Assembly: GCA_016193335.1 (NCBI GenBank)
Contig: JACPSK010000001.1
Location: 343,424 to 407,423, forward strand
Length of the DNA stretch: 64,000 nucleotides
Direction: 5' to 3'
From: Candidatus Magasanikiibacteriota bacterium
GTDB lineage: Bacteria; Patescibacteriota; Patescibacteriia; Magasanikbacterales; UBA922
Both the position numbers and the translations under genes were made by a program. The notes under the pieces are model-generated. The model saw only the letters and a list, made by a program, of their open reading frames with translations. It did not search any database and was not told the DNA's origin. Each line of letters starts with the position of its first letter. Positions within the stretch are counted from its first letter, which is position 1. Positions 19,845 through 49,302 of the stretch are shown one piece after another.

Positions 19845-19848
19845 TCCG

Positions 19849-20791: not shown

Positions 20792-20793
20792 AC

Positions 20794-20929: not shown

Positions 20930-23900
20930 TCACTTCTTATAAGGCACCACAATAATACTACCTTTATATTGGGTCCAAGCCTTATCATAATCTTCTTTGG
21001 TTTTTTCCAGTTTTTGCTTTTTCACATCAGACGGCTCAATAGCATCAAAGGCTTTGCCATTGCATTGATCATACAAAACACCATAGACCTTAGCGCCTGA
21101 AATAATTTGTCCATTATATTTTGTATAACACCCCATCTCCGAATTTGGCAGAACACCCCCCGGCATTACTTGGCAGGTGCCATTACACCAACCCCAATTG
21201 TCCAGGACCTGAACTTTGGGTTTGAATTTGCAGACGTATGGAGTGTCCGCGGCCGTATAACCCATGCTCTTGAGAGTAACTTGCTCGCCCTCGGTGAGAG
21301 AACCATAAGACACCACATAATCAAAACCATCTTTACCCGCGAGTGTAACATCAAGCTCAGAGCAACCATAGCCATGGACAAATTCAAAGTATCCTTCTTG
21401 GCAGGCCCTGGGCTGATTGCCAAACAAAGGAGATTTAAGCTCATAATTGACCAAATTGTCCGGGGTCTTAAAATCTATGTTCTTTCGTTCCTCGGGAGTG
21501 GCACACTGAAATTCATCTAATAACATGCAATCATTATCAGCAAGACAGGTAAGACCAGAAAAAATGTAGCCCCCTGTTGTTAATGGAGCTCCGAAACAGA
21601 GCCCTACGGTAGGATCAGAAGCGGCTTCAGCTTCGGCGCAAAAAGGTTTTCTATTTTTGTATCTGCCATACATGTGCTCGTTGAGTATACCCGTGGAATC
21701 GGACCAATCTATCATCACTCGTTTTATAGGCATGCGATTGTCATCGGCCCAGGCAAAAAATCTCAACTTTGCTTCAAGACTGGAAACGCCCACTACCGGC
21801 ATAGGATCATTGGTGCCTGGCACCAATTCTTCGAGTTTTCCGTCTCCGTCGTAATCTGAAACCACACCATTTTGCTCATTTACGGTAATGTTGTTTGCTC
21901 CGGCGGCCACGCAGTCCGGAGTCTTGATGTTACTCCCTTTAAAGAAACAACGGAATGGATTCAGGGAATACACTTTTGGCGCCAGGCCTGTTTTATCCAC
22001 GACATAACTGTAGTCAGGCCCCTCAAACATCGGGGATATTTCATGAAGAAGCCAAGAATCGCGAACTTTGTAAGTACGAGCGAAAAGTTGTCTTAATAAA
22101 TCCGTACCGGCAAGTGTATTTTCAGCAGGGGTAACTAATATCTTCTGGGTTGGATCCGAAGCCGCAAACATTTCATAAGAAGTGCCCTTAAAAGCTCCGC
22201 AACCTATGCCGCCGGGATAATTGGCTGTGCTTGGGGCTATCGTCCCAAATTCATATTCAGGTTTATTCTCTGACGCGGCAGTCCAATAAGGTTCCTTATA
22301 CACCGGAGATTTGCAAGCGTATGGAATGCCTGAGAATAAATCTATCCGATCAAAATTGTACACAGCAAACAAGTTGTCTACCTGCTCGTCCGGCAATTTG
22401 AATTGATTTTCATCCACATAAGTAGAACCATAGGGCCTCACAAAACTGTCTAGCGTGATATTACCAAAAAACTTGGAAATAAAGGCATTAATATCTTTGA
22501 ATATGGGGCCCAGATAATAACCCGCGCCCTGCCAGACCCTGTTTGTCCATGCCTTGCTGGTGGATTCGGAAGGATCTTGCTCGGCGATTCCGGAGTCGTA
22601 GACCTGTTGGAATTCAGTACAGCGAGGATAGTACTCCACTGAGGCGGCGAGCAGTTGGTCTCCTCCCTGCAACAATCTCCAATATTTGATGAATTCTTTA
22701 CTTTTATAATATCTGAAGTCGGTTTGGATAACGCTGTTTGGATTTTGGAATTCTAATTTCAAATTTTGGTCCACATCGTATTTATTGTATACGTTTCCTT
22801 CCAAAGTAAAACGAACATAAAACAACATATACGCTGGCACATCATCGTGGATAGGAACAAAGTCATTCTGTTTGTATCCTTTGCCATTGGCGATAAAACC
22901 TTTGACCCACTCAATGAAGGTTTTAGTATTTTGAACATCACCATTCTTACCCTCCAAATCTTCCAAAGGAATAAACAAACCATACAGATTGCCGCCATCA
23001 GGCATTTTACTTTTGAATCCAAATTGGAATTCCTGGCCCCATCTGGAATCAAGTACTTTCTTTGTATAACGTATAACGCCATTCGGCCCCTCAAATTCAA
23101 GGGCACTCCCTCTGTTCAAAGCATCAAAATCAAGCTCCGCTCTATCTGTTATGTACAGTCTTCTGTCATCTGGTACATAGTCATTTCCTCCACCTACAGA
23201 ATTTGCCCAAATCCTAAACGCGTGAACCACCAAAGGCCCAAAACGAATCTTTCGTATCATGTCTTCCCTCGGAAGAAGTTCATTCATCTCTATGACAGAT
23301 GTTTCACCCAAATCAACAAGCTTTTCATAACCAAGTGTAGGCTTCCAATTCGGCAGACCTACGCTCCCTGCATCATTCCACGCATTATTTATGTAGGTCT
23401 CATATACTGAAGGCTCATTGTGGTATGTTATCCACTCTTTCGGGTTATTCACAAACCACACATGTGAATTTGGTTCTCTAAAAGAAAACCAATTATGGCT
23501 GGACATGTAGGTATAGAGATACTTTTGGTATTCTGCGGCAGACGTTACTGCGCCAAAATTACCTTGCTGAGACGCGGCGGGAAAATGATGGAGCCAAGAC
23601 AGATTCGGCGTTACCGAAAATACAGACGGCACGTCGGGGTCATCATTGCTATTTGGCTCAAAAGAATAACCCCAAGAACGATACTTTTCGTATTCGCTTG
23701 ATTGGTTATTGCCCGGCAAAGCTATAAACAAATCCTTTTTATACTGTCCCAAACCATGAGCGTCTGAATCTGTGCAATATACTTGTCCGCCGATAATAGT
23801 CTTGTCGTTGTTGCTCTTGGACACCGCGTCAACCAGCGGATAGTAACCGGCTAGCGGATCATTATTGTATAGATCCACTTGAGTGGCAGACACATCCACC

Positions 23901-26900
23901 GGCAACCAAGTAAGACAGGCGAATTCGCCTTTTGTTTTGTCTATGGGCCTGCTTAGATCTCGCTCCAAACAAAAACCATATAAACCGGTATGTGTTTCAA
24001 TATTCTCCACGCGCGCGCAAGATCCTCCTGAAACCAGATTCTCATCAACATCATAGGTATTGCAATCTTTCTCCACGGCGCAGGGTTTCTTTTCTTTGTC
24101 TCCTCCAACGCAGATCCCTTGGATATAGCTGTCTTTGCTGCTCGGCCAAAAATCAGGGATAGGCAAACCGTTGTATTCTGTTTTTTTGTAAGAGCAAGAA
24201 CAATCTCCATCCTGGCAAATATTGGCTCCTTCGAATCCAGCCCTTTTCGTCGTAAATTCTTTTCTTGTCTGGCCTTCTACGCTAAACTCTTCCACCTGTG
24301 TGGCGATACTGAACGAATAGGGGCTGTTTTGTTCCGGAGGAGCTTTGCAAGAACCGCCGGTAAGATATCTAGTGATCAAACTTGTGCCGCCATTCGCCTC
24401 CACTGCGTTCAGATCCAAATCAGCGGGCCAAGCACCCTCAACCGGGAAAATGCAGGTGTTATTGTAACAACGCCCGCCTTTAGTGCTCCCAAAACCGCAG
24501 CTGTCCCAATCTTCTTTGCCCGAAAGAGGGCCGCAACCAAGAGCGGGATCAATGTTATCGGTGATCAAGGAAGGCAATTCGTAGACAAGGTAGCTCACCG
24601 GTTCATCTTCTACCACCAACTGTTTGAGATCGTATATTTGGTGCTTGTTAAACAGGGAATAACCTGAATAGTCTTCACCAAACCAAGATGTGTCGCGCTT
24701 TACGTACACGCTTTCGCCGAGAGGCGTAAGATCAAAATCTCCGGTTCCTACCCAATCTACGCATTCCACGCCTTTTACCGTACTCCTGCAAGCGTCAAAA
24801 TTATAACAAACGGATTTTTGGGTCCCATCAGAATTGGAAATGACAGATTTATTCTTGCAAGCCAGCCATTCACTACAGATTCTGTCCCTATCCACTTTTA
24901 AGATCAGATTTGCGTCTTTATCCTGGCCTTCAGATACCGGAGCCACGAGCGCGTATTGCGGTTTTGCTTTTTCACTGAGTTCATAGGTCTTCGCGCTGTC
25001 ATAGAGTTTGTTGGGCTGGTCGGTTCTGTTGAACAAAACGCAACCTTCTTTGAGACTCACTTTTCCTTCGCAATCACCGGCTTTGGAAAGCAGCTGCTGG
25101 TCTACAATAACATAATAAGAAGACCCTTCGGGCTTAAGCTCAGAAGAATCTGCCGGATCAATAAGTTCGGTACACAGATGATGATTCTCCGAGCAAAGGC
25201 CGACAAATCCGTCATACTTTTCCGAATCATTGGACCAAATGCCATATTCCCCTCCGGCTTTCACAAAATTGCCATAACATTCGATTTTCCCTTTATCCAC
25301 GCATTCAGCATTCTCTTCTTCGCCGCATTGAACATTTTCAGAGCAGAGCTGTTCGAGATTATTGGAGCAACGTCCTACTCCATCTTTGAACCAACCAAAT
25401 TTAACTTGGCCGTTTATATCTTGTTGCTCTTTGTATGAACATATTTTGTGCGCGGTCAAAGCGGGATCTTTGAAATACAGCAAATCATTGCCGGACTTGT
25501 ATTCTGAACAACCGAGAAGATCGGATCTACAGAGAGTTTGTTCATAGTGAGCCGGATCGTTTTTTACCAAAGTGGCATTGAAGGCGTAAGAACCGCTCTT
25601 TTCATCGGGCACCAAATGGTCTTCGAGACCGGTGGCCTGACAGCCTCTAAACTGAGACTGACAGACAAATTCATTACGATACGTCAAAAATATCGGACTT
25701 TCTTCGGGCGTGTCTTGAGGCACTACCACGCTTGATTCTTTTATCCAGGAACTTTCCAAATCCGCAAGCGTCGGCACGATAACCGGAGAACTTATATAAC
25801 AGCCTTTTTGTCCTTTTAAGATTTCACAGGAGCCCAAGTCTTGTCCGTTCTTTGATAGCGTACAAGTTCCTTCCGCGTCCGAAGCGCACCATGCATTGTG
25901 CACGCGAGCTTGCTCTTCGTCTTCCATATCCACGGTATTGTAAGTATCGTACAAAGCCATGCAACCGGCGGCCTGGGGTCTGCAGAGTTTGTCGAAACCG
26001 GTGGCGTACACAGGCTCGCTGAATTCCACATCCGTATATTCTCTGCAACCAAGGGCGGAGCCGGGTAATCCATCATCCGGTTTGTCATCGCAACTTAAAG
26101 GCACGTCTGCTGTAACAGTCTCGCCGTTGAGATCAATCCGTTGTTTCCAGGAATTTTTGACATAATGATCTTGACTTTCCACTTCTATAATACGCAGCGA
26201 ATCTATAAAATACGGGCCCGAAGCGCCCACGAACGAGCGTTCGAAAATAAGATGGCTTTTTTTGGATCCATCGCCAGAAAAACGCACCGGCCCAAGCCTA
26301 TAACTCTGCCAGGCCTCGCCAACAGGAACTTTAATTTGTTTGCCCGGCACACTCGGATCTGCGGTGAAATCGGCTTTTATAATATCTCCTGCCTCTGTGT
26401 CTCCTCCGAGAAGTTGCGTTATCTGTATGGAAAGATTTTGCGGCGTGCCATGAGCCCAAAATTCAAGCTCATACCACTTTTCGCTTTGTATCACGTCAGG
26501 CTCAAAGGCATAAGCAAGCATGCTGTCATTAACTTGCAAAGAATACAATCCCACTTGCGTGGCATCCGGCTTTACGGCGATGGGTCCGTCTTCTTGAGCG
26601 CCGAACCAGCCAGCGGCCGCTTGATTCAAAGCATCTTCAGAATCAGCCTCCGGCTCAAAGCTGAAATATTCGACTGTCCTTATGTTGTTGCCGAAATTGC
26701 CATTAAAAGCGCGACAGCCGTTAAACTCGGCAGGACAAGATTCCGCTTCACTGGTTATACTCCAATATACGCAAGAGCCATCTTTGTACTCTCCGCCATT
26801 GAAACATCTCTTGCAGATTCCGGTGGCTCCGCTTCCGGTCCACATTCCCTTTTTGTCCAAGCACAGAGCTTCATTCCCTTTCAAATTATCATCTTCTTCA

Positions 26901-29809
26901 AGAGAAGCTTCAGTAATGCGCAAAGGATGACAATCTTCTGACACGCTCACCGTATCATTAAGCATACGGTAATAAATATGACCTTCTTCATCATACAAGG
27001 CTCTGCAATTCGAATTGGCCGCTTCTAAATCATAAGGATTATTTATCAAAACCGTATAATTTATCTCATTACAAAAATCATAAGCATTTTGCAGTGAAGC
27101 TTCACTATCATTCGCGAAAGCCGGAGCACCCGGGCCAAACACTGAAGCCGAACTGTCGCCCACATTAAGGGCAAGATTCAAAGCAGAGATATATTGAGAT
27201 TCTTTTTGATCAATCTGGAGCATCCGATGGACACGAAGCACAAAACCTTCGCTGGCCGAACCTTCCCATGAGTAATAGGTGCGTTCATTGGCTCCACTCG
27301 GTTTCTGACAATACTTGATGTCTTTGTAATACTCCAAACCTTCTCCCCCGGACAGGGCGGTGTCTATATTGGTAAATTCACTGCAGCCGTTGTAAGTGGC
27401 AGAGCAAGCGGTGGCCTGAGAAGGAATAAAATACAAGGGGAACACAGAAGCCTCAAAAGGAGCTTCTTCTTGTCTAAAGGTGTCATACCCCAGACATTCT
27501 TCTTTGCAACTGTTGCCACCCACCACCGCCACAAAATTCGAGCCTTCGGTTTTTGGCTGATATTCAATACAGCCTTCTTCTTCGGGCAGACATACTTGGG
27601 CGTATTGATTGCAGGCCTCGGGACGCTCGCTTAGTTTTTCCAAGTCCAATTCGTTGACCGGCCAATTTACCACGCCTTTGCTCAGAAGATTGATATCATA
27701 ACAACCCAGATACTCAGGAGCCTTTTTGAGATGAACCTGGTCTGTGGTCTTTTTGTAGCTGTCTGTGTTCAAGTCAAATCCGGCGATATAAAAAGTACTG
27801 CAACCAATGGAATCCGGCGGACAATTATTAAACTGCTCAACGGCACGGTTGAAGAAAATAGTCTGGTTAATCCCCTGTTTTTTGAGAGCAAGATCTATGG
27901 CGCCGCTATTCGTCCATGCGTCCCCTTCCTGATACATACTGTATGCTCTGCACCCCACGGCTTCTTGGCTACATTCACCGGCGTCAAGAGTTCTCGTTAA
28001 ATAAGATGAAACCGTGTTTGATTTGGTATTTATAAAGGTACGACAGGTGCTAAACTGCGCAGGACAGCTATTCCCGCCCACGCGCCACACATTTTGCTCA
28101 CGCAAGCAATATCCATAATTACTGAGACAAGCTCCATTTTCGTCCTGCTGCAAGCAAGTGGAAATGTCCACGCATTCCTGCTGTCTTTGTGGAGCTTCAG
28201 GGGTGACCAAATTGGGCCCAAAAACCTTTGCCTCGCAACGAGGTTCAGGTAAACGGATAATCCATTTGGGATCAATAAGATGACAAAACGGAAATTCGGA
28301 ATTTGGAGCGCCATTCGGCGCACAATCGTAAAACCCCTTTACCACCGCGCCCAAAGTCCATTTTTGTGGCGCATCCGGATCGGCCTTCAAAGCCGCGATC
28401 TCAAATCCAAGAGGTACGATGCGAGCTTTGCGGAGTTTTTGTATATTCGCATAACAATATTTTCCGGAAGAACAAGCGCGCACCGCGTTTATGCCCTCGT
28501 GGTCTATGGTGCGACGAGGCGAGATAAGAGGCCAATCTTCGTGGAGAAGCCCCTGGGCCAAAGCCTGCTCTATAGTGAGGGGAATTCCAACATTTGCCCG
28601 CTCCACAGCCTGCCTCAACCCCGCGTCTATTACACAATTATTTAAGCCCGGATTCTCCGGACAACTGGAATATTGGTCAAGCAAAGGATAGATATTGATT
28701 TCTTTGATTGGCACTGAAGTAAACAAAAAGTTAAAGCTGTTTTCAGCGGCCTTCCTATTCACATTAAGTACAGACGCGAATTCACTAACGACCGAATCCG
28801 CTATAGAAGTATCTGTACCCTTGTCTCCCACGTCAGTAGCATCCGGAAAAAGTCCTTCTGTCAGAAGCTGGTCGAGCAAACTGGAAACAAGGGTATTTAA
28901 AAATACCGAGAGCGCGGATGGAATAACCTGGAGCATCCCAGAACCGTAAATTCCCGCCACTTGGCCGGCGCTCAACTGACCCTGATGTTTGGCTGTCACG
29001 GCTTTGGTTTCTTCTTGAATTATCTGAGCCGGTGTTTTTACTTTTCCTTGAATCAAGTTGCTAAGAGGCTTAAAACCCTGCCCTTCAAGACGATCGGTAT
29101 CTGCGCCCTTTTTGGCATCCACGGCTACTCTGCCCACCTGAGCGCTGAGGCCGAGAGCTATGCCAAAATCAGACTGGTCGACTTTTACCGCGTTCGCGAA
29201 GGCTCCTGAAATCGTGTCATATGGAGTATCACCCAATTGATTGCCAAATTCTTTCCAGCTTTCGCTAAATTCATTCCACTGACAACGAGGTCTCGGTCCG
29301 CCTTTGCCATCTATGTCGTCGTATAATGAGCGGAGACCAACCTGTATAAAGACTTGAGCTTCTAAATTGGGAGGGCGGCACAAGCTAACGCCAAAAAGAC
29401 CTTCTCCAAACTGATCTATGGCTCCGGCCGCTGTGTCCAAAGCAACACTTTTGAAATATTCTCCAGCGCCTTGTTCAAAAGCGAGAGCTCCCTGGCCTTT
29501 GCCTCCGGAAGCCACCCACTTGGCGCTATCGTACGCGAGTTTGCGTGTAAAATATGAGGTGGCATTCACCAAAGTACCCAAAGCGACAGCCAACAAAGCA
29601 TCGCCTATGGTATCCATGATATTGGTTGTCTTTTCCGGGATGCTTTCAATAACGCTTACCGGCAGACCGGCATAGGCAGGCCGCGCGAAGGTGCCGAGCC
29701 CTATCACCTGCACAGACAAAAACAAAACTATGAGGCCGATTAACGCGAATCTGGTTCTTCTTTTTGTGGTGCCATGCATACTCATAGCTACTGTCTTCTT
29801 AAGCTTCAT
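20930..29809 (-). CDS. Giant (2,959 aa) Cys-rich secreted/surface protein with an N-terminal signal-anchor
   Basis: Single uninterrupted 8.9 kb ORF. N-terminal TM/signal (FALIGLIVLFLSVQVIGLG), then a very large extracytoplasmic region with many closely spaced Cys (e.g. CVDISTCLQQDENGACLSNYGYCLREQ...SCPAQFSTC). No enzymatic motif recognised. Confidence 0.8.
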   Translation of the reverse strand: MKLKKTVAMSMHGTTKRRTRFALIGLIVLFLSVQVIGLGTFARPAYAGLPVSVIESIPEKTTNIMDTIGDALLAVALGTLVNATSYFTRKLAYDSAKWVASGGKGQGALAFEQGAGEYFKSVALDTAAGAIDQFGEGLFGVSLCRPPNLEAQVFIQVGLRSLYDDIDGKGGPRPRCQWNEFSESWKEFGNQLGDTPYDTISGAFANAVKVDQSDFGIALGLSAQVGRVAVDAKKGADTDRLEGQGFKPLSNLIQGKVKTPAQIIQEETKAVTAKHQGQLSAGQVAGIYGSGMLQVIPSALSVFLNTLVSSLLDQLLTEGLFPDATDVGDKGTDTSIADSVVSEFASVLNVNRKAAENSFNFLFTSVPIKEINIYPLLDQYSSCPENPGLNNCVIDAGLRQAVERANVGIPLTIEQALAQGLLHEDWPLISPRRTIDHEGINAVRACSSGKYCYANIQKLRKARIVPLGFEIAALKADPDAPQKWTLGAVVKGFYDCAPNGAPNSEFPFCHLIDPKWIIRLPEPRCEAKVFGPNLVTPEAPQRQQECVDISTCLQQDENGACLSNYGYCLREQNVWRVGGNSCPAQFSTCRTFINTKSNTVSSYLTRTLDAGECSQEAVGCRAYSMYQEGDAWTNSGAIDLALKKQGINQTIFFNRAVEQFNNCPPDSIGCSTFYIAGFDLNTDSYKKTTDQVHLKKAPEYLGCYDINLLSKGVVNWPVNELDLEKLSERPEACNQYAQVCLPEEEGCIEYQPKTEGSNFVAVVGGNSCKEECLGYDTFRQEEAPFEASVFPLYFIPSQATACSATYNGCSEFTNIDTALSGGEGLEYYKDIKYCQKPSGANERTYYSWEGSASEGFVLRVHRMLQIDQKESQYISALNLALNVGDSSASVFGPGAPAFANDSEASLQNAYDFCNEINYTVLINNPYDLEAANSNCRALYDEEGHIYYRMLNDTVSVSEDCHPLRITEASLEEDDNLKGNEALCLDKKGMWTGSGATGICKRCFNGGEYKDGSCVYWSITSEAESCPAEFNGCRAFNGNFGNNIRTVEYFSFEPEADSEDALNQAAAGWFGAQEDGPIAVKPDATQVGLYSLQVNDSMLAYAFEPDVIQSEKWYELEFWAHGTPQNLSIQITQLLGGDTEAGDIIKADFTADPSVPGKQIKVPVGEAWQSYRLGPVRFSGDGSKKSHLIFERSFVGASGPYFIDSLRIIEVESQDHYVKNSWKQRIDLNGETVTADVPLSCDDKPDDGLPGSALGCREYTDVEFSEPVYATGFDKLCRPQAAGCMALYDTYNTVDMEDEEQARVHNAWCASDAEGTCTLSKNGQDLGSCEILKGQKGCYISSPVIVPTLADLESSWIKESSVVVPQDTPEESPIFLTYRNEFVCQSQFRGCQATGLEDHLVPDEKSGSYAFNATLVKNDPAHYEQTLCRSDLLGCSEYKSGNDLLYFKDPALTAHKICSYKEQQDINGQVKFGWFKDGVGRCSNNLEQLCSENVQCGEEENAECVDKGKIECYGNFVKAGGEYGIWSNDSEKYDGFVGLCSENHHLCTELIDPADSSELKPEGSSYYVIVDQQLLSKAGDCEGKVSLKEGCVLFNRTDQPNKLYDSAKTYELSEKAKPQYALVAPVSEGQDKDANLILKVDRDRICSEWLACKNKSVISNSDGTQKSVCYNFDACRSTVKGVECVDWVGTGDFDLTPLGESVYVKRDTSWFGEDYSGYSLFNKHQIYDLKQLVVEDEPVSYLVYELPSLITDNIDPALGCGPLSGKEDWDSCGFGSTKGGRCYNNTCIFPVEGAWPADLDLNAVEANGGTSLITRYLTGGSCKAPPEQNSPYSFSIATQVEEFSVEGQTRKEFTTKRAGFEGANICQDGDCSCSYKKTEYNGLPIPDFWPSSKDSYIQGICVGGDKEKKPCAVEKDCNTYDVDENLVSGGSCARVENIETHTGLYGFCLERDLSRPIDKTKGEFACLTWLPVDVSATQVDLYNNDPLAGYYPLVDAVSKSNNDKTIIGGQVYCTDSDAHGLGQYKKDLFIALPGNNQSSEYEKYRSWGYSFEPNSNDDPDVPSVFSVTPNLSWLHHFPAASQQGNFGAVTSAAEYQKYLYTYMSSHNWFSFREPNSHVWFVNNPKEWITYHNEPSVYETYINNAWNDAGSVGLPNWKPTLGYEKLVDLGETSVIEMNELLPREDMIRKIRFGPLVVHAFRIWANSVGGGNDYVPDDRRLYITDRAELDFDALNRGSALEFEGPNGVIRYTKKVLDSRWGQEFQFGFKSKMPDGGNLYGLFIPLEDLEGKNGDVQNTKTFIEWVKGFIANGKGYKQNDFVPIHDDVPAYMLFYVRFTLEGNVYNKYDVDQNLKLEFQNPNSVIQTDFRYYKSKEFIKYWRLLQGGDQLLAASVEYYPRCTEFQQVYDSGIAEQDPSESTSKAWTNRVWQGAGYYLGPIFKDINAFISKFFGNITLDSFVRPYGSTYVDENQFKLPDEQVDNLFAVYNFDRIDLFSGIPYACKSPVYKEPYWTAASENKPEYEFGTIAPSTANYPGGIGCGAFKGTSYEMFAASDPTQKILVTPAENTLAGTDLLRQLFARTYKVRDSWLLHEISPMFEGPDYSYVVDKTGLAPKVYSLNPFRCFFKGSNIKTPDCVAAGANNITVNEQNGVVSDYDGDGKLEELVPGTNDPMPVVGVSSLEAKLRFFAWADDNRMPIKRVMIDWSDSTGILNEHMYGRYKNRKPFCAEAEAASDPTVGLCFGAPLTTGGYIFSGLTCLADNDCMLLDEFQCATPEERKNIDFKTPDNLVNYELKSPLFGNQPRACQEGYFEFVHGYGCSELDVTLAGKDGFDYVVSYGSLTEGEQVTLKSMGYTAADTPYVCKFKPKVQVLDNWGWCNGTCQVMPGGVLPNSEMGCYTKYNGQIISGAKVYGVLYDQCNGKAFDAIEPSDVKKQKLEKTKEDYDKAWTQYKGSIIVVPYKK

Positions 29810-39961: not shown

Positions 39962-42469
39962 CTATAAACGCTCCATAACCAAACCATAGGATCGGTCTTG
40001 ATCCAAAATCCCGGAAAACATAATCCCGTTACTGCCGGCTTCGATGTTTTCGCCAGAATACCACACCGGCCTCCAGGCATCGGGGAAAATAAGCGTCGAA
40101 TCGAATTCACTATTTGTGCCTGACTGTTTTTGCACCAAGAGCGAATAACGCGCTGTCTCTGCTCTCTTGCCAGCGCCAAAACCTTGCCACATTGTTTCGG
40201 CGTAAGAAGAATCGCCTTGCTCTTGTTTATTAAAATCAAAATTAAAGGGAAGCCGATAAACAAAAAATACTTCAGAGTCTTCCCCCGGCTTTGTCCGTGT
40301 CCAATTCCCGAATGCCGTCTTGCCAAATTCCTGAGTAATGCCAGTACCTGTGTTCACATGCAGAGTCTGAGTATCAGCTATGGCCTTCAGATCCGGGTCA
40401 TTCTCATACCAAGGCTCAGGAGCCAAAAAAGATTCCTCTTCAGGAAAAGAAAAACCGCCGGCATCTAAAAGCTCTGAACCCAAGGGCACATACACTCTCA
40501 AATAATTAATGTTCGGAGCTCCATAAAAATCTTCACCCGGCCTGCCCTCATGTTCTCGTTTTATTTTAACATAAGCTATGGCGCTGCCATCCGCCTGTAC
40601 CGCAACCTGATGGCTGATATGCTGACGAATCCGGGCGTCACTTTTTTCTCCGCCGATATTTGAATTCACTACCATGAGATAGTCTTGGTTATCTTGGGTA
40701 GGAATAATTTCGCCGGACCAACCGAATGTCTTGATTTTTTCCTGAACTTTTTCATCAGTAAAATACAATTGAATTTCCTTTTCTTGCAGAGCTCCATGCA
40801 ACTCCACGACCAGACGCAAGAGCTGATCAGGTTCGAGATTCCGCGTTTCAAGGATGAGCTGATCCAGCACCGAAGCCAAAACTTCCTTTGGCTGATTTTT
40901 TTCTTTGTCATAGCTGTTTTCCACTTCGTCTTGCAAAACATTCAGGCTCTTGTCTGCATCCAAATTAATATCAAAGGCTTCATTATACACAGGACCAAGC
41001 ACCTTGAGCACTCGTTCCAAAACAGAGGCATTGATGGCAATAACTCCGTCCACCGAAGTCCCGCGGCTATGCTGGTAAAACCAAGACATTTTTTTTGCTG
41101 TAGCCGGAAAATCCGGAAACCAATTGGAATCGTGGAATTCCCAGCGGCCGTTTACCAACTGCAAGGGCAAGGGCGGTTTTAAAAAGGTATCAAGTTGCCC
41201 CTGGACCTCGTAGGCCCCGCCGCCGGGCAGATCAAGAGAAAGCAATTTGCCTTTTTGCAAATCCATGACCGCGAAACTGCCCATAAATCCGCCGCTGGCG
41301 CGGAGTTCATGATTATTTTGAAATACAAGGAGGTAACGCTTGAAATCATCAGCGCCAAGGATCATATTCAAGCCCTCAAGAACTTGATTCATGTCTTCCA
41401 TATCATCTATAAAAGCCCCGAACAAAATTTTGAACTCATCAAAAACAGATTGGTATTCCACGGGAAGACTCGCGTTATCAACACGCATCAATTCTTCCAA
41501 GGCGGCTTGATATTGTGGCAAAGCGCTTCTTATATGCGCTCTAAATACGGACAATCTATCCGTGGGACTCAGGTCTTTTGCACGGGTCATTTCATCAACT
41601 CCTTTTACCAAATAGGTATTGCCAAGCGCCACATGATGACCGGCCTGCAACAAATCTTGCCTGCTTCTCACTTGTTTGCCAACGACGGGCAAAAGCTCAA
41701 CAACATACAAAAGGGCTTTATATTGTTTATCAATGATAGATTCGGTCTCGGCAAAAGAATTAAGAGCTTCGTTCAAATCATATTGAGCTTGATCAATATT
41801 GCTCGACAAAGCAGCGATGGTAGAAGACTGGAGAGACAAAAAAGCGTCAACACTTTTTTGAACCGCGTAAGAACTGTCCGACTTGATCTGGCGATAATAT
41901 GAAAGAGTCGGGTAAGGCAAAGTGACAGAAACAAACAAAACGATGAATCCATAAGAAAGACGTTTTAGGTCAAAATGTTGCCGTAAAGCGGCAAGGGGAC
42001 GATTTAGGATCATTTTCAACTCTCGAAGTGAAAAAAAAGAAACATGAAACCCGAGGAGCTGTGTTGAAAAAACGCGGGATAGTATTTTTTTGAGCGGAAA
42101 AAAATGCTCGCCTTTCCTGATTGGTGCAGAGGCCCGTTTCAGAGACTTTTCCGGTTTCAAAGGATTGTTGGCTTGTCTTACCAAAGCGGCGAAATCAATG
42201 TTTTGTCTTTTTTCAGTGAAAGACTGTTCTCGGTAAACCTCTACTCGTTCGGAGTGCCTTGGCTTCAGACTCCCAAGGTCAACGAGGTGGGGAGAGCTGA
42301 GCGGTTTTTGGTGCGCGTTAACAAAAATATACGCCGGCCCCTTGTCTTTGCTCTTTCTATTCTCGCAAGTCAATTTTGTATGACCCGGGATACGACAAAC
42401 AGAGCATTTTCGCTTTGCCCTTCCTTCTTTCCGACCGGCTTCCTTTTTTAACTTACGAGAACTACTCAT
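39962..42469 (-). CDS. Membrane protein with an N-terminal CCHC zinc knuckle and a large extracytoplasmic domain (DUF4012-like)
   Basis: CSVCRIPGHTKLTC matches CX2CX4HX4C exactly. A TM follows (YGFIVLFVSVTLPYPTLSYY), then about 650 aa. Confidence 0.4.
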   Translation of the reverse strand: MSSSRKLKKEAGRKEGRAKRKCSVCRIPGHTKLTCENRKSKDKGPAYIFVNAHQKPLSSPHLVDLGSLKPRHSERVEVYREQSFTEKRQNIDFAALVRQANNPLKPEKSLKRASAPIRKGEHFFPLKKILSRVFSTQLLGFHVSFFSLRELKMILNRPLAALRQHFDLKRLSYGFIVLFVSVTLPYPTLSYYRQIKSDSSYAVQKSVDAFLSLQSSTIAALSSNIDQAQYDLNEALNSFAETESIIDKQYKALLYVVELLPVVGKQVRSRQDLLQAGHHVALGNTYLVKGVDEMTRAKDLSPTDRLSVFRAHIRSALPQYQAALEELMRVDNASLPVEYQSVFDEFKILFGAFIDDMEDMNQVLEGLNMILGADDFKRYLLVFQNNHELRASGGFMGSFAVMDLQKGKLLSLDLPGGGAYEVQGQLDTFLKPPLPLQLVNGRWEFHDSNWFPDFPATAKKMSWFYQHSRGTSVDGVIAINASVLERVLKVLGPVYNEAFDINLDADKSLNVLQDEVENSYDKEKNQPKEVLASVLDQLILETRNLEPDQLLRLVVELHGALQEKEIQLYFTDEKVQEKIKTFGWSGEIIPTQDNQDYLMVVNSNIGGEKSDARIRQHISHQVAVQADGSAIAYVKIKREHEGRPGEDFYGAPNINYLRVYVPLGSELLDAGGFSFPEEESFLAPEPWYENDPDLKAIADTQTLHVNTGTGITQEFGKTAFGNWTRTKPGEDSEVFFVYRLPFNFDFNKQEQGDSSYAETMWQGFGAGKRAETARYSLLVQKQSGTNSEFDSTLIFPDAWRPVWYSGENIEAGSNGIMFSGILDQDRSYGLVMERL

Positions 42470-42645: not shown

Positions 42646-43797
42646 TCATCCCGTTTGATCGAGATAAACATTCCTGGTAATGCCGGCCAGAGTATCCCAT
42701 GAATATCTAAGCAGCTCAGACCGGGCGGCTTGTCTCAGCTCATATCTTAGATCAGAATCGCTGAGAACTCGGTGTATGGCATCTGCCATCTGATCGGCGC
42801 TCATGGGATCCACATACGAAGCGGCCCCGCCCAAAATTTCCGGAATGCTACCCGCGTGAGAACTGATTACCGGCAATCCTCTGCTCATGGCTTCAAGCGG
42901 AGGCAAGCCGAAACCTTCATAGAGACTGGGGAACACAAAACATTCGGCTTTTTTGTACAAAAGGTCCAGATCCGCGTCAGAGACAAAACCCGTGTATAAA
43001 ACTTGTTTTGTCTGCACGCCGCGATTAAGCCCGCGAAATAGTTCCGAGTCAGTTAAATTTTTATAAGCGAAATCTTCTTTCCCTACTAAAACAAGCTGCC
43101 GTAGATTGCCATAGCGCTCACCATATACGTCCCAAGCCTTGAGCAATGTGTTCAAATTTTTGTGCGGATAAGCCGCTCCCACATAGAGAATAAAAGGCTT
43201 CTGAATTCCATGCACAGACAGTGTCGTTTCTTCATTTCCACTTTTATTTTCATAAGAATGCTCAAGACCGAAAGGAGCCTGGTATGTTACCTGTATCTTA
43301 TCTGCGGATACGCCAAGCATACCCACTATATCGTGCTTGGTATATTCACTGGTGGCAAATATATGACGCGCCGAGCCTGCCGCGTGGCGCAAGACCGATT
43401 TATACGCAAGGTGTTTAAATTTATAATACAAAGGGTTCAGAGTGCTGGCGCTCTCGTCCGGATAATGCAAGAGCAAAAGATCATGGATAGTGAGCACAAA
43501 GGGTTTTCTATATGAAAGCGGTACATTCCAATGCGGAAAATGCATCAGATCAACTCTTTCTTGTTGGAAAATTTTTGTGAGTTTGGTCTGTTCTTCCCAA
43601 CCATACCAATGAATATCAGCCAAAACTTTTTTGAAACACGGATTCTTGGGTTCGTATTCTCGCCAATTATCTTTTTTGAAAAATAAAACATACTCGTGTT
43701 CTCGTTCGATTTTCTCAAGATGCAAAACCAATTGCTGTATATAGCGCCCTATGCCGAATCCACTTCCCCACATACGAGCGTCTATGCCTATTTTCAT
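42646..43797 (-). CDS. Glycosyltransferase family 4 (GT-B, GT1/GT4 clan)
   Basis: C-terminal EGFGLPPLEAMSRGLPVI (E-X7-E region); 383 aa. Confidence 0.75.
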   Translation of the reverse strand: MKIGIDARMWGSGFGIGRYIQQLVLHLEKIEREHEYVLFFKKDNWREYEPKNPCFKKVLADIHWYGWEEQTKLTKIFQQERVDLMHFPHWNVPLSYRKPFVLTIHDLLLLHYPDESASTLNPLYYKFKHLAYKSVLRHAAGSARHIFATSEYTKHDIVGMLGVSADKIQVTYQAPFGLEHSYENKSGNEETTLSVHGIQKPFILYVGAAYPHKNLNTLLKAWDVYGERYGNLRQLVLVGKEDFAYKNLTDSELFRGLNRGVQTKQVLYTGFVSDADLDLLYKKAECFVFPSLYEGFGLPPLEAMSRGLPVISSHAGSIPEILGGAASYVDPMSADQMADAIHRVLSDSDLRYELRQAARSELLRYSWDTLAGITRNVYLDQTG

Positions 43798-43981
43798 AGA
43801 TTTCAGTTAATCGAAGTAATCCTACCATTAGGCTTTATTCAGAGTCAAAAAAGTGTCCAACCCATAAAGAGCCCAAAGCTATGTACAAAAAACCAACACT
43901 GTGTTAAAGTCATTTGATTCTTCAAAATCAACGAAGAAGAATCGTGGACCAACCGGGCCGAGTGTCAGGACGGAGGAGAGC

Positions 43982-44665
43982 ATGAACATCAAACCTGTAT
44001 CCGTGGCCTGCCAAGAAGGCGTGGAAGATTGGGAGCGCGAGGCCGTGCTCCATGCCATACGCCTGGTCTTGGAAACCGGACGGGTGTTGCATTCTACGGA
44101 GATCGTGGACTGCGGTCTTTGGCGGAGTGATGCTTGGCTTTCCTCTCAAGGAGAGCTAAGCGCTTGGGAGAGCGTGGATTGGTATATCTCCCACGCTCGG
44201 GCCGAGAGCTCGAGACCCACTCAGCTCAACGGGCACACGCTGATGCGGCTCCTCCTGGCTGAGCCATGCCGACGTGAAAAAGACGGAGACCACTACGACG
44301 CGCTGGTCGTTGCAGACGACATGTACGACGGGGGCGAGACCAACTTCGTGCTCGGCCTCGGAGCCCCGGGACTTGGTACTGTGTTGTCGGTCAACCGTCT
44401 TCGGAGTCTGGAGCCTGAGCTTGCGAGCCTCTGCATCAGCACGCTTGCTCTGCACGAATTCGGACATGCTTGCGGTTTGATCGCGGACGACCGAAGAGAG
44501 AACTTCGAAACCTCGCTCGGACGACATTGCACGAATCGCTGCGTAATGCGCCAGGGCCTCTATGTGCCGCAGGACTGGATCCGCTTCACTGAGGAACGTC
44601 TGGAGGAAGGCCGAAACTTCTGCGCCCAGTGCAGGGACGAGCTGGGCCGTTGGTTTCGGAGATAG
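43982..44665 (+). CDS. Archaemetzincin-like (M54-type) zinc metalloprotease, GC-rich island
   Basis: HEFGHACGL...RHCTNRCVM...FCAQC approximates the archaemetzincin HEXXHXXG...CX3-4CXM...CXXC pattern. About 58% GC versus about 40% in the flanks; opposite strand to the surrounding GT genes; SD ggaggagagcATG. Confidence 0.5.
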   Translation: MNIKPVSVACQEGVEDWEREAVLHAIRLVLETGRVLHSTEIVDCGLWRSDAWLSSQGELSAWESVDWYISHARAESSRPTQLNGHTLMRLLLAEPCRREKDGDHYDALVVADDMYDGGETNFVLGLGAPGLGTVLSVNRLRSLEPELASLCISTLALHEFGHACGLIADDRRENFETSLGRHCTNRCVMRQGLYVPQDWIRFTEERLEEGRNFCAQCRDELGRWFRR

Positions 44666-44672
44666 GAGACAC

Positions 44673-44708
44673 GAATCTCACTCGCGAGGGTGAGATTCTT
44701 CATTTTAT
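44673..44708 (+). terminator. Rho-independent terminator after the metalloprotease gene
   Basis: gaatctcac-tcgcgagg-gtgagattc perfect 9-bp stem followed by ttcatttta. Confidence 0.55.
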
Positions 44709-44928
44709 GGACCCTAGAAATAATCTACTATTTTCTACGGATGCCGATAAAACTTTGTGTCTAATGCTGAATTACAAAAAATAAAATCCTTCTGAAAATC
44801 CCCCACCGGGGAAGATACCACGAAAACATTAAAACAAAATAAACCTTATTTCTAGAGCCTCACCTCAAAAATAATTTTGAGCTGGAGTTCTAAATACTCT
44901 ATCCCAAACTAACCAAGAATGAATTACA

Positions 44929-46062
44929 TCACATAGAATGGATAAGAGACAAAAATTGAAGCGCTGTTTTCTCCCAACTGAAAAAAATAGACCTAACCAA
45001 AGCCTTTTGGGAATAATAGCCGGCCAAGACAGTATCCTCTGCCAGAAGTTTTATGGCATGAGCAAGTTCAGAAACATTATATGGATTCACGAGATAAGCA
45101 GCGTCTGAAACGAGCTCTGGTAATGAAGAACGGCTACTTGTGATAACCGGAAGACCGGCTGACATAGCCTCGAGCACGGGGAACCCAAAGCCCTCATACA
45201 AACTTGGATACACAAAAATACGGGCCAATTTATACAAAGCGCATTTATCTTCATGTTTTACATAGCCTACATACCGGGCCTTCCGAGTCTCTGCCATTGC
45301 CCGGTGTATCGAATGTGTTTTCCATCCTTCCGGCCCGGCGATGATAAGATGATAACCCTTGTCCGCCAGTCTGCTCAATTCAAAAGCCTTGAGCAGAGCT
45401 TGAATATTTTTTCGAGGTTCCAAAGTCCCAAGAAAAAAAAGATATTTCTCCGGCAAAGCATAAGCTTGCCTGACTGCTTCTAACCCGGAATTCTCTCGTT
45501 TCATGGCTGAAGAAATACCGGGATATAAAATCTGTATTTTGTCTGCTTCCAAAGCATACTGCGTGATAAGATCTTGCCTCGTATTTTCTGACGGTACGAA
45601 TATACGATCCGCTCCAAGGCACTGCGAGCGCGGATTGATAATTCTGTGCCGCCATTGTTGTTTGAAGGTAAAACAGTCCGGCAACAATTCAAAAGAAAGA
45701 TCATGAACAGTCAATATGACTTTGCTTGTCTTTGACCACGAAGAGAAATGGAGATTCGGGAAAAACATACAATCAATCTTTCTGCCAATCTTTGATTCCA
45801 AAAAACGGTCAAGACGCGGATGGCCTGAAATCGCGATGCTCCCATGCAAAAATTTATTGGGTAAACGAGTGGAAACATATTGTACATTATCGTAATTCCA
45901 CTTTGGTAGATAGCTAGAAACGTCTTCAAACGAATTATAAAAAAGAACATAATGATTGCTCCGGTCAATCGAAAAGAGAGCGGCAAGAAGCTCAAAGGTA
46001 TATTCCCCAACACCCGTACGCAAGGGGCTTGCGAGACATCTGATGTCAATGGCTATAACCAC
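44929..46062 (-). CDS. Glycosyltransferase family 4
   Basis: EGFGFPVLEAMSAGLPVI motif; 377 aa. Confidence 0.75.
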   Translation of the reverse strand: MVIAIDIRCLASPLRTGVGEYTFELLAALFSIDRSNHYVLFYNSFEDVSSYLPKWNYDNVQYVSTRLPNKFLHGSIAISGHPRLDRFLESKIGRKIDCMFFPNLHFSSWSKTSKVILTVHDLSFELLPDCFTFKQQWRHRIINPRSQCLGADRIFVPSENTRQDLITQYALEADKIQILYPGISSAMKRENSGLEAVRQAYALPEKYLFFLGTLEPRKNIQALLKAFELSRLADKGYHLIIAGPEGWKTHSIHRAMAETRKARYVGYVKHEDKCALYKLARIFVYPSLYEGFGFPVLEAMSAGLPVITSSRSSLPELVSDAAYLVNPYNVSELAHAIKLLAEDTVLAGYYSQKALVRSIFFSWEKTALQFLSLIHSM

Positions 46063-46300: not shown

Positions 46301-47470
46301 TTAAAAATTAAAAATTTTGTTATTATTTACATAAAAATCCAAACGGCATTGATTCAGCCCGCGCAAAAATTCTTCATAGTGGTTTTCCACATAGCGCCGC
46401 ATTCGCTCTTTGAACTGTTTCTTGTCAAAACGTTCGGCCCAGTGACGAATGTCCTGGCTATTCCATGCGTAAGGGTCAAAATTAAGCACAGCGTCATATA
46501 AAGATTCCCAATTCTGTTCATGAAAAAAAATACCTGTTCTGCCCGGAATCAAAGTCTCGGTAACGCCTCCCTCTCTATACGCTATCACCGGCCGTCCGCT
46601 TGCCATAGATTCGATGGGCGTAATGCCCAGGTCTTCCACCTGAGGATGCACAAAGGCTTTTGCCCTGCTCAACAGGTCTGCTTTGTCTTTTTCATTGATT
46701 TTACCTAAAAACTGAATATTTCTTCTGGCCCTCTTTCGGAGGGACTCCAATTCCGGCCCCGAGCCGAAAATTTTGAGAGGAACCTTGAGTCTATTGAAAG
46801 CCTGAACCAGCAAATCAAAACGCTTGTAGGGGACGAGCCTGCCGCCGGAAACAAAATAGCTTCCTATATCATTTGATATATAAAATCGTTCCACATCCAC
46901 CGGCGGGTAAATCACATCGCTTTCACGGCGATAATACTTCGCGATTCTTCCCTGTACGGTCCTCGAGTTCGCGATAAAACGATCCACCCGGTCTACGCTC
47001 ATTTTATCCCAAAGCCGAAGTTTATGAATCAAACGAGGCAAAAGAGACTTCACCACGCGGTTGTACTTGAGATCTGCCAAATACTTGTAGGTATCAGTCC
47101 ACAAATAACGCGTTGGCGTGTGGCAATACGACACATGAAAAGTATCAGGCCGCGTAAGAACCCCTTTGGCGAAAGCGCTGGTGGATGACAAGACAACGTC
47201 AAAGCGATTTAAATCATGCCGTTCCGTGGCCAAAGGCATCCAAGGAAGATACCATTGATACCGCGTTTTCCCAAAAGGCATTTTTGCGATAAAAGACTGG
47301 CGCACATCCGCGTCTTTTGAAAAATCACTGATTTTTTTGCGGTCATGAAACAACACAAAAATCGGAGCCTCGGGCCACAATTCATGAAAAGCTTGAAGCA
47401 CGCGTTCCGCGCCGCCGTCCTGAGAAAGATAATCATGCACCAAGGCAATTTTCATAATGTGATAAGGCAA
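46301..47470 (-). CDS. Glycosyltransferase family 4
   Basis: IESMASGRPVIAYREGGVTE region, GT-B fold length of 389 aa. Start may be MKIALVHDY at 47455. Confidence 0.7.
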   Translation of the reverse strand: MPYHIMKIALVHDYLSQDGGAERVLQAFHELWPEAPIFVLFHDRKKISDFSKDADVRQSFIAKMPFGKTRYQWYLPWMPLATERHDLNRFDVVLSSTSAFAKGVLTRPDTFHVSYCHTPTRYLWTDTYKYLADLKYNRVVKSLLPRLIHKLRLWDKMSVDRVDRFIANSRTVQGRIAKYYRRESDVIYPPVDVERFYISNDIGSYFVSGGRLVPYKRFDLLVQAFNRLKVPLKIFGSGPELESLRKRARRNIQFLGKINEKDKADLLSRAKAFVHPQVEDLGITPIESMASGRPVIAYREGGVTETLIPGRTGIFFHEQNWESLYDAVLNFDPYAWNSQDIRHWAERFDKKQFKERMRRYVENHYEEFLRGLNQCRLDFYVNNNKIFNF

Positions 47471-47643: not shown

Positions 47644-49062
47644 CTACAAAGCCCGTCTTTTTTTAAATAGAATAAAAGGAGTTTTGAGAAAAATAATCAT
47701 GTCCAAAAATAAACTCCAACGCTCCATATACAAAATATCCAACTTCATCTCCTCTTCAAATGAAAGATCACTGCGCCCTGAAATCTGGGAAAGTCCGGTA
47801 ATCCCGGGCTTAATGGAAAAAATCGACTTATGATGTTTTTCATAAGCCTCCACTTCCCTCGGCTGGTGAGGTCTGGGGCCCACCAGACTCATCTCCCCTT
47901 TTAAAACATTATAAAACTGGGGCAATTCGTCCAAGCTCCAACGCCTTATGAAGGCTCCCACTTTTGTCACGCGGGGATCATCACCTATTTTGTAAATGGG
48001 TCCTTCTTTTGTGCCTTGTTTCCGTATCAATTCTTGTTCTCGCTCTTCGGCTTTTTTGCCCGAACTGCCAAATTGAGCGCCCGTGCATTCATCTTGGTAC
48101 ATGGAACGAAATTTGAAAGTAAAAAAATGCTTCCCTCTAAGACCCACGCGTTCATTTTTGTAAATAACCGGAGAACCTGTTTCTGCGTACACGGCCAAAA
48201 GCACCAAAATCATAAGAGGCCCAAGCGCAATAAGCGCTACAAGGCTCAACAAGGTATCAAAAACTGTTTTGATAACAGAACCCCAGCCGTCCAGACGCAC
48301 CCGTTTGAGTTCCACTATGGGGATACCGCCCACCGGATGGACCGACATGTTGCTGGTATAGGTGGAAAATAAATCAGCTGAATACTTAAATGTTATATGG
48401 CGCTCATTGCAATAATCCAAAGCTTGGATGGCCTCCTCTTCATGCGCACGGGGATTGGCAAACAAAAATTCATCTATCTCCATGCCGTCGAGTTTTTTTA
48501 CCAGAATTGAATCATAGCAAGGAAAAATGCCGAGCACGCGATATCCGAATTCAGGCCTCTCGCGAAACGTGGACGCGATCGTTTCGGCGAAACGCTGATC
48601 GCCCACGATTACGATAGTACGAAGTCCAATAGACAAACGGTACAAAATACCTTTCAGACCTCGCATCAAAAGACGACCCAAGACAACATACACAAGCGCG
48701 AAAAACCAGGCCGCGGCCACCAAAAACCGTGAATCAAAAAGTTGCTGACTAAACATCAAATACATGGCAAGAAAAGCAAGGCCTGTGGAGCAGGCGACAA
48801 AAATTCTGTTCAGGATATTGGAAAACCTCCGATTCGGGTTTGGAGAATACAAACCAACCATAGCGAATATAAGAAGCCAGACAGTCGCCATCCAAAAAAC
48901 AATACCCATGAATTCGGAAAGATCCAACTCAAACATAACCGGACGCAAAGCCAAAGCCCAATCGCTAAAACGGGCATAATAGGCCGAGAGACCCGCCAAA
49001 AGCAACATAAACAAGTCTACGGGGACCTGCAAAACCATGAGTAAAATCTCTGTTTTTTTCAT
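47644..49062 (-). CDS. Undecaprenyl-phosphate sugar phosphotransferase (bacterial sugar transferase, WbaP/EpsL type)
   Basis: N-terminal TM bundle, then the C-terminal 'bacterial sugar transferase' signature PGITGLSQISGRSDLSFEEEMKLDILY. Start set at MKKTEILLM (49062). Confidence 0.75.
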   Translation of the reverse strand: MKKTEILLMVLQVPVDLFMLLLAGLSAYYARFSDWALALRPVMFELDLSEFMGIVFWMATVWLLIFAMVGLYSPNPNRRFSNILNRIFVACSTGLAFLAMYLMFSQQLFDSRFLVAAAWFFALVYVVLGRLLMRGLKGILYRLSIGLRTIVIVGDQRFAETIASTFRERPEFGYRVLGIFPCYDSILVKKLDGMEIDEFLFANPRAHEEEAIQALDYCNERHITFKYSADLFSTYTSNMSVHPVGGIPIVELKRVRLDGWGSVIKTVFDTLLSLVALIALGPLMILVLLAVYAETGSPVIYKNERVGLRGKHFFTFKFRSMYQDECTGAQFGSSGKKAEEREQELIRKQGTKEGPIYKIGDDPRVTKVGAFIRRWSLDELPQFYNVLKGEMSLVGPRPHQPREVEAYEKHHKSIFSIKPGITGLSQISGRSDLSFEEEMKLDILYMERWSLFLDMIIFLKTPFILFKKRRAL

Positions 49063-49302
49063 AGCTTTTGATTCATTGATTTTGTTGATTACATAATACT
49101 CAAATACACCCCCAGGGTCAATGGAAGCAAGACCCTGGATTTTGCTCCGTTTGCCATAAAAGAGACTGCAGCGCCGAACCGTTCTCATTGTTATAAATCA
49201 TGCCAATTTAGTCTCAAAAATTAAAATCGTAAATTAAAAATCAAAAATTTTGTTCAGTCCCTAACAATCTTGACCAAGCATCCGATTTGTGTTATATTTG
49301 GA

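Follow-up and report, generated by a model that had tools for sequence, protein, structure and literature searches.

Archaemetzincins (MEROPS M54; Pfam PF07998, NCBIfam NF033823) are recognized by a published fingerprint, HEXXHXXGXXHCX4CXMX17CXXC, in which three histidines bind the catalytic zinc, the glutamate is the base, the methionine is that of the Met-turn and the four cysteines make up a zinc finger (PMC3427221, PMC4681839). Structures have been solved for the AmzA proteins of Methanopyrus kandleri (2x7m), Archaeoglobus fulgidus (3zvs, 4axq and 4a3w) and Methanocorpusculum labreanum (3lmc). AMZ-tk of Thermococcus kodakarensis (TK0512), a divergent archaemetzincin, displays zinc-dependent protease activity that depends on the three histidines and the glutamate (PMC4681839), and the human proteins AMZ1 and AMZ2 have been described as aminopeptidases (PMC3427221, PMC4681839). 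CarG of Myxococcus xanthus, represented by the model NF033824 ('non-proteolytic archaemetzincin-like protein'), carries HQXXH (PMC3427221) and provides a bacterial precedent for loss of the catalytic glutamate. Here we describe a gene at positions 43982-44665 of a 64-kb stretch of DNA, hereafter the window, from a Candidatus Magasanikbacteria metagenome-assembled genome (MAG), in which it lies on a 686-kb contig. The gene is recorded at NCBI as MBI2989881.1 (HYY51_01685), a 'hypothetical protein' of 227 aa. We propose that it likely encodes a cytoplasmic, single-domain zinc metallopeptidase of a divergent M54 subfamily, which was acquired horizontally into a glycosyltransferase (GT) operon. 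We know of no physiological substrate for any archaemetzincin so far. With this proposal, the 'hypothetical protein' gains a testable zinc-peptidase assignment. The gene and the motifs on which the argument turns are as follows.

43982-44665, plus strand: archaemetzincin-like coding sequence (CDS), 227 aa plus stop, an open reading frame that matches the NCBI record exactly.
44453-44476, plus strand: codons of H158-E159-F-G-H162-A-C-G165, by alignment the putative two zinc ligands, catalytic Glu and metzincin Gly.
44477-44524, plus strand: codons of residues 166-181 (LIADDRRENFETSLGR), a subfamily-specific segment recognized by a gap against 3zvs/4axq and by spacing statistics.
44525-44548, plus strand: codons of H182-C183-T-N-R-C187-V-M189, the putative third zinc ligand, first two finger Cys and Met-turn Met.
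44621-44632, plus strand: codons of C214-A-Q-C217, by alignment the last two Cys of the putative Cys4 zinc site.

The initial annotation, made from the DNA letters, had placed a gene at 43901-44708. A single genuine gene is indeed present in this region, but its start needed correction. The longest open reading frame runs from 43901 to 44665 on the plus strand and opens with a GTG at 43901; the true start is almost certainly the ATG at 43982, because a GGAGG Shine-Dalgarno (SD) sequence precedes it, the N-termini of homologues align to Met1 and NCBI calls a protein of 227 aa. The N-terminus is not hydrophobic, and residues 6-10 form a core strand in the AlphaFold2 (AF2) model, from which the protein is predicted to be cytoplasmic; neither a signal peptide nor a membrane segment was found in its sequence.

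We are very confident that the protein is an archaemetzincin homologue, the identity suggested in the initial annotation, as sequence profile, predicted fold and motif all point in this direction. A search with the single sequence already matched the Protein Data Bank (PDB) archaemetzincins 2x7m, 4axq and 3zvs (E = 3e-4 to 3.5e-3), and a profile built from 124 sequences retrieved those of A. fulgidus (E = 1.1e-13), M. kandleri (1.4e-11) and M. labreanum (1e-7), with ADAMTS, snapalysin and other metzincins far below. With the 124-sequence alignment, AF2 returned a model with a predicted local distance difference test score (pLDDT) of 97.8 and a predicted template modelling score (pTM) of 0.93, which replaced a poor model (pLDDT 64) from a 4-sequence alignment. 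The best Foldseek match of the new model in the PDB is 2x7m (E = 1.9e-10, TM-score 0.79 per target), followed by 4axq, 3zvs and 3lmc, with E-values up to 8e-8; fragilysins and matrix metalloproteinases rank after these four archaemetzincins. The profile matches and the structural comparison therefore establish that the protein is homologous to archaemetzincins and is predicted to share their fold. The NCBIfam archmetzin model also recognizes the protein (E = 5.9e-9, 36.1 bits), as it does all 14 of its closest relatives. Pfam M54 is matched at E ≤ 0.01 by 61 of the 124 family members, and a sequence 42% identical to the query (P0014) passes the gathering threshold (29.8 bits against 24.4). PF07998 is the precomputed assignment on many of the closest matches, and the name given by JGI is 'predicted Zn-dependent protease'. 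The family is also far from small. An exhaustive profile search of 1.84 billion representatives yielded 682 relatives at E ≤ 1e-3, 356 of them at E ≤ 1e-10, nearly all 200-250 aa long. This overturned the impression of a near-orphan family left by a word-indexed, single-sequence search of 5.8 billion clusters, which had returned the protein itself and three relatives at 26-30% identity. The result is an insertion-bearing archaemetzincin subfamily of ~680 clusters (counted at 50% identity), mostly from the candidate phyla radiation (CPR) and DPANN.

How does the protein compare with its described counterparts? The initial annotation had noted motifs approximating the archaemetzincin pattern. 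All of them are present (HEFGHACGL at residues 158-166, CTNRCVM at 183-189 and CAQC at 214-217), and the Cys motifs are conserved in the family. HExxHxxG, the His-Cys dyad, CX3C-X-M and the distal CxxC align residue for residue with AmzA: the first of these, catalytic Glu included, with HEIGHVLG of the A. fulgidus protein (AfAmzA), H182-C183 to M189 with HCSNNCVM and the CAQC region with FCRECA. The Met of CVM, M189, is in the position of the Met-turn residue, and C183, C187, C214 and C217 reproduce the Cys4 pattern C-X3/4-C...C-X-X-C. These four cysteines are the only invariant columns of the 124-sequence alignment, in which W67, H104, G125, S136, H158, G161, H182 and M189 are at least 90% conserved. 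What makes the match approximate is an insertion of 14 residues before the His-Cys dyad, together with ~7 extra residues before CxxC. Sixteen residues separate Gly165 from the third His, instead of two in AmzA, so that the dyad departs from the GXXHC spacing, lying 17 residues after the glycine across a 14-residue gap relative to 3zvs and 4axq. This architecture is a property of the subfamily. Among the 168 family sequences that match the motif pattern, the first His and the first Cys are most often 25 positions apart, compared with 11 in the classical family; a His directly precedes the first Cys in 164 of them. The spacer between Met and CxxC measures 24 residues in the query, with a mode of 23 in the subfamily and 17 in the classical family. 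The catalytic Glu occurs in 140 of the 168 (83%) and is retained here as Glu159. The insertion follows a consensus, LIPxxRxxNVExSLGxHC, that is conserved across the subfamily, and within it R171 and G180 do not vary in the 14 closest sequences. Like AmzA, the protein is small, apparently cytosolic and of one domain; unlike AmzA, to which it is ~20% identical, it falls below the curated family thresholds and belongs to a subfamily whose hosts are mainly CPR bacteria and DPANN archaea, not Euryarchaeota. AMZ-tk displays the same motif logic, but retains the HExxHxxGxxH spacing of the classical family and is a hyperthermophile's protein; Thermococcus homologues are 28-38% identical to the window protein in local alignments, and in the case of AMZ-tk only the C-terminal half aligns to the query. 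The protein differs from CarG in keeping Glu159 and has no match to NF033824, a model for which one of the 14 closest relatives gives a marginal match. Human AMZ1 and AMZ2, eukaryotic proteins of much greater size, have, going by their description, the core archaemetzincin domain in common with it, along with the Cys4 motif. The insertion and the CPR/DPANN distribution are notable, without making this a new kind of system.

What do these features imply for the mechanism? Based on the AmzA structures, the catalytic Zn2+ would be held by His158 and His162, which are situated on the active-site helix, together with His182. The zinc-bound water would be polarized by Glu159, and Met189 would provide the Met-turn beneath the metal, as homology to AmzA suggests. 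A second, structural zinc might be held by Cys183, Cys187, Cys214 and Cys217 in a Cys4 finger. The 14-residue insertion, contained within residues 166-181, is probably a loop or a beta-hairpin at the cleft, where it could shape or gate substrate access. In the AF2 model the inserted segment forms short strands at 175-177 and 181-183, close behind the active-site helix (residues 145-163), and from this model we infer that His182 may still be the third zinc ligand. We lean towards a catalytically active protein.

We next consider where the gene came from. Its surroundings contain the following features.

43798-43915, no strand: AT-rich spacer, ~30-45% GC, between the start of the gene GT383 and the GC-rich block.
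43916-43924, plus strand: 9-bp direct repeat, left copy (GATTCTTCA), bordering the GC-rich block on its left and found by repeat search.
43925-44702, no strand: GC-rich block, ~55-70% GC in 40-bp windows, the probable extent of imported DNA.
43972-43976, plus strand: SD sequence GGAGG, 5 nt before the ATG at 43982, identified from the sequence and an upstream survey of 40 genes.
44673-44708, plus strand: intrinsic terminator with an 11-bp stem (44673-44698), a 4-nt loop and the T-rich tail TTCATTTTAT.
44694-44702, plus strand: the second GATTCTTCA copy, on the right border of the GC-rich block and overlapping the end of the terminator stem.
44703-44928, no strand: AT-rich spacer, ~23-45% GC, between the terminator and the stop codon of the gene GT377; absent in relatives.

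The initial annotation had contrasted a gene of about 58% GC with flanks of about 40%, and the measured profile is far from uniform. The CDS has a GC content of 59.6% (65, 46 and 68% at the three codon positions), compared with 43 and 41% in the 2-kb flanks and a window mean of 45%, which places it at z = 4.6 among gene-length windows. Against the 40 other genes of the window, which we used as the native reference set, the GC content at third codon positions (GC3) is 6.4 standard deviations above the mean (0.460 ± 0.035, maximum 0.537). Relative synonymous codon usage correlates with the background at r = 0.44, as against 0.82 for native genes (minimum 0.64). Tetranucleotide frequencies also make the peptidase block an outlier in the window (z = 5.9). 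At 40-bp resolution the edges of the block are sharp, at ~43925 and ~44702; it takes in the CDS and the terminator together with a short leader, and AT-rich spacers of ~120 and ~225 bp border it. The gene comes with its own expression signals. GGAGG is found upstream of one of the 40 native genes, and GGAGG-N5-ATG precedes the peptidase gene and both of two GC-rich lipoprotein genes elsewhere in the window, a likeness correctly noted at the outset. The terminator, described there as strong, has a hairpin free energy of -19.1 kcal/mol (z = -3.2), and none of 200 shuffled sequences folds as well. As an observation in its own right, the native genes of this Magasanikbacterium are essentially devoid of SD sequences in the 40-gene survey of the whole window. 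The distinction between imports with an SD and natives without may be a useful marker of recent acquisitions in this genome.

Horizontal acquisition is, in our assessment, highly probable, because the gene is an outlier in GC, GC3, tetranucleotide and codon usage, carries an SD of a type foreign to the genome and is absent from the orthologous loci considered below. The high GC cannot be put down to the family, since its members otherwise follow the GC of their hosts in most genomes, over a range of 0.29 to 0.62. Several deviate from the host value (L019 by +0.13, L015 by +0.10, L017 by +0.07, L011 and L018 by -0.06), hinting at repeated horizontal transfer, which seems to be recurrent in this family. 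The donor would be an unsampled organism of ~60% GC, and the SD and the terminator would have come in together with the gene. Beside the gene there is neither a mobility gene nor a tRNA nor a clear insertion scar; no inverted repeats surround it and the window contains no other copy of the insert. A defence-system or phage origin was rejected, as searches of viral contigs (IMG/VR), PHROG and PADLOC returned no member of the family, and an RNA element within the insert was rejected for want of an Rfam match. The two copies of GATTCTTCA may be a target duplication or reflect microhomology at the junctions. Since the region should contain about three such 9-mers by chance, only their placement is suggestive: by our own estimate, the probability that both copies fall within 15-30 bp of the block edges is roughly 0.3-1%.

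The insertion site is defined by two flanking genes.

42646-43797, minus strand: GT383, a GT4 glycosyltransferase of 383 aa with Pfam GT4 domains, the downstream gene of the interrupted operon.
44929-46062, minus strand: GT377, a GT4 glycosyltransferase of 377 aa with Pfam GT4 domains, the upstream gene of the interrupted operon.

These belong to a minus-strand series in the order Bac_transf (47644-49188), GT (46301-47470), GT4 (44929-46062), a gap of 1131 bp, GT4 (42646-43797) and DUF4012 (39962-42469), and the plus-strand peptidase gene occupies the gap, so that it interrupts a minus-strand run of GT4 genes from the opposite strand just as initially described. The word 'inserted' used there also finds support in synteny. 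Two relatives, L036 (Magasanikbacteria, GCA_018658985.1) and L037 (GCA_000380885.1), carry orthologues in the same Bac_transf-GT-GT-GT-DUF4012 order, and in them the counterparts of GT377 and GT383 are separated by 2 bp or share 4 bp, with nothing in between and no peptidase homologue at either locus by tblastn. The gene therefore splits a pair that is translationally coupled elsewhere. It would thus have landed in a conserved operon for cell-envelope glycosylation, between two coupled GT4 genes. To us this is a clean single-gene horizontal insertion that splits such an operon in a reduced CPR genome; a literature search for M54 in Patescibacteria, or for horizontal transfer in Magasanikbacteria GT clusters, found nothing. 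A promoter-like site lies on the minus strand within the 43798-43915 spacer (43848 to 43819, TTGACT-18-TAGGAT with a TG element) and, judging by its sequence, could serve as the promoter of GT383 in the split operon. The cluster varies elsewhere too: at 2037-2600 of the L037 locus, an extra NTP_transf_6 gene separates Bac_transf from the first GT, and the cluster therefore tolerates small insertions at other points. The DUF4012 protein of the window (835 aa, 39962-42469, minus strand) has a Lys/Arg-rich N-terminus that starts with a CCHC zinc-knuckle-like motif, CSVCRIPGHTKLTC.

Several observations weigh against this picture and have to be set beside it. A Pfam scan of the protein itself, the search proposed in the initial annotation, gave no Peptidase_M54 match at E ≤ 10 (a hit to 'Eclosion' at E = 0.067 is spurious), its NCBIfam score lies far below the curated cut-off of 145 bits, and the insertion breaks the literal fingerprint HEXXHXXGXXHC. 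Membership in M54 is supported because relatives pass the curated models, though the query does not; homology and fold bear the assignment out, whereas the curated thresholds and the literal fingerprint do not. Whether His182 reaches the metal rests on the predicted model. MkAmzA and AfAmzA, their active sites occluded, were inactive in vitro on all substrates tested (PMC3427221). Part of the subfamily dispenses with the catalytic Glu, and for these reasons the ancestral role may not be bulk proteolysis. On the side of acquisition, the donor search reached a best identity of 48% anywhere, and with relatives only ~50% identical, neither the time of insertion nor its exact footprint can be fixed: identity to the flanking GT is only ~50-56% among the nearest relatives at hand, and in L036 and L037, which are distant throughout (47-73% amino acid identity), the GT383 orthologues stand at 54% and those of GT377 at 47-48%. 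Some of these points invite the view that the archaemetzincin fold is used here without a protease role, in a zinc-dependent binding or regulatory protein like CarG. The inactivity of the two AmzA proteins and the HQXXH of CarG suit this view, as does the weak contact of one relative in 14 with the non-proteolytic NCBIfam model. It is also supported by a clade of the subfamily (P0002-P0013; Chloroflexi/Anaerolineae and some CPR) that has HS, HA, HH, HN, HY or HQxxH and keeps RHCTNxCxMR, CxxC and the Cys4 set; in this clade the scaffold has therefore been selected without the catalytic base, and its members are probably non-proteolytic derivatives analogous to CarG. The clade also takes in L008 and L009 (Anaerolineae) and L024-L026. 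The window protein, on the other hand, lies outside it and retains Glu159, all three His and the Met, as most of the subfamily does the Glu, and AMZ-tk and human AMZ1/2 are active peptidases (PMC4681839). We consider a non-proteolytic role unlikely, while giving it more weight than any of the alternatives that follow. With Glu-bearing as well as Glu-less clades, the subfamily could be of use in separating catalytic from scaffold roles.

The remaining alternatives concern the origin of the gene and its position. Were the gene native, its high GC would have to stem from amino-acid composition, expression level or local mutation bias; the lack of a mobility gene, tRNA or clear scar beside it, the lack of a close donor sequence anywhere and the frequency of the family in CPR bacteria would all be accommodated. 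The GC excess, however, is strongest at synonymous sites (GC3 0.68 compared with 0.46 ± 0.035), homologues adopt the GC of their hosts, tetranucleotide and codon usage are outlying, the SD is of a foreign type and the orthologous GT genes abut in two relatives. This explanation is already disfavoured, and we regard it as very improbable. Another possibility is that assembly or binning joined DNA of a GC-rich organism to a Magasanikbacteria contig, as might be suspected from the abrupt GC change on both sides in a MAG. Seven assemblies of separate sequencing runs, one of which (SRR4343435) belongs to another accession series, agree at 100% identity over both GC junctions, so the arrangement is not an assembly chimera, and the block is a neat single gene with its signals between intact host genes; an artefact is thus next to inconceivable. 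Finally, the peptidase may have been recruited to the glycosylation operon, for example to process or regulate a GT or the DUF4012 protein. Its position exactly between two GT4 genes of the Bac_transf-GT-GT-GT-DUF4012 cluster is in keeping with this, and transcription of the operon must be altered by the insertion. Against it stand the opposite orientation, the gene's own SD and terminator and the lack of a signal peptide or membrane segment. Related loci speak the same way: no neighbouring gene is common to at least three of 20 of them, three further annotated contexts of family members are unrelated to one another, and neither set has a GT or envelope association. Conserved neighbourhood was rejected as a clue to function on these grounds. 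There is no sign of the peptidase working with the operon, and recruitment appears improbable, if slightly less so than a native origin. A horizontally acquired M54 peptidase that happens to reside in a GT operon remains the reading we prefer.

The distribution of the subfamily was surveyed in one genome per GTDB species with patterns from the 14 closest sequences, and the following is drawn from the matches listed. DPANN archaea are represented by Woesearchaeota (47 and 42% identity), Nanoarchaeia (38%), Pacearchaeota and Aenigmatarchaeota, and CPR bacteria by Saccharibacteria (45%), Paceibacterota (42%), Moraniibacteriota (40 and 38%), Patescibacteria, Uhrbacteria and Parcubacteria. Planctomycetales, Gammaproteobacteria and Alphaproteobacteria contribute one MAG each, and classical archaemetzincins of Thermococcus and Vulcanisaeta appear at ~30% local identity. 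A bias towards CPR and DPANN among these matches, obtained as they were with closest-sequence patterns, is suggestive. In a crude neighbour-joining tree, drawn without support values, archaeal and bacterial sequences are intermixed, and the window protein sits on a long branch near Woesearchaeota, Nanoarchaeia and Planctomycetales. The Alphaproteobacteria MAG (L027) has two tandem family paralogues side by side, at 6856-7734 and 7767-8615.

Does the window hold other DNA of the same provenance? Its only other compositional outliers are two plus-strand lipoprotein genes, at 19272-19844 and 20150-20791, which form two cassettes.

19138-19860, plus strand: GC-rich lipoprotein cassette, HYY51_01600.
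20005-20803, plus strand: GC-rich lipoprotein cassette, HYY51_01605.

The initial annotation had hinted at a common foreign source for these and the peptidase gene. Composition, codon use and SD are consistent with one; the idea is not demonstrated, and the inverted repeats of the cassettes have no counterpart at the peptidase gene. The codon usage of the lipoprotein genes correlates with that of the peptidase gene at 0.84 and 0.66, compared with an average of 0.38 for native genes (maximum 0.64), although some correlation would be expected between any GC3-rich genes. Tetranucleotide distances among the three GC-rich blocks (0.47-0.50) equal those of random pairs of native pieces (0.489 ± 0.048), and the peptidase block is 0.71 from native pieces. 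This fits an origin of the three genes from one donor, or from donors of like composition. The lipoprotein genes are singletons in a collection of 15 billion proteins, and a JGI metagenome scan for the second of them found nothing. Each is bracketed by an inverted repeat with a conserved core (AGCAAGGCG / CGCCTTGC) and a variable part that changes in a compensatory manner (AGCAAGGCGCGG...CCGCGCCTTGCT versus GCAAGGCGTAG...CTACGCCTTGC): the extension bases differ yet stay complementary (CGG/CCG versus TAG/CTA). The upstream arm lies within a 20-nt direct repeat, GCTCTTTTACRAGCAAGGCG, and each 5' leader contains a long hairpin of 23-25 nt. These repeats could mediate long-range pairing of mRNA ends or be the ends of mobile cassettes. 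An architecture shared by all three genes was rejected, as neither the flanking inverted repeats nor the 5' hairpins recur at the peptidase gene. Taking distribution and donor together, we speculate that the insertion-bearing proteins of CPR and DPANN might be a functionally distinct, horizontally mobile accessory peptidase of ultra-small episymbionts, exchanged between bacteria and archaea, and that the peptidase gene and the two cassettes (19.2-20.8 kb) might derive from one SD-using, GC-rich donor, possibly the organism on which this Magasanikbacterium lives. We hold this combined scenario to be doubtful, and less probable than the non-proteolytic role discussed above; if true, the three GC-rich genes would be a trace of a host-symbiont relationship. 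Directly downstream of the cassettes, on the opposite strand, lies the gene for a giant Cys-rich protein of 2959 aa (20930-29809, minus strand).

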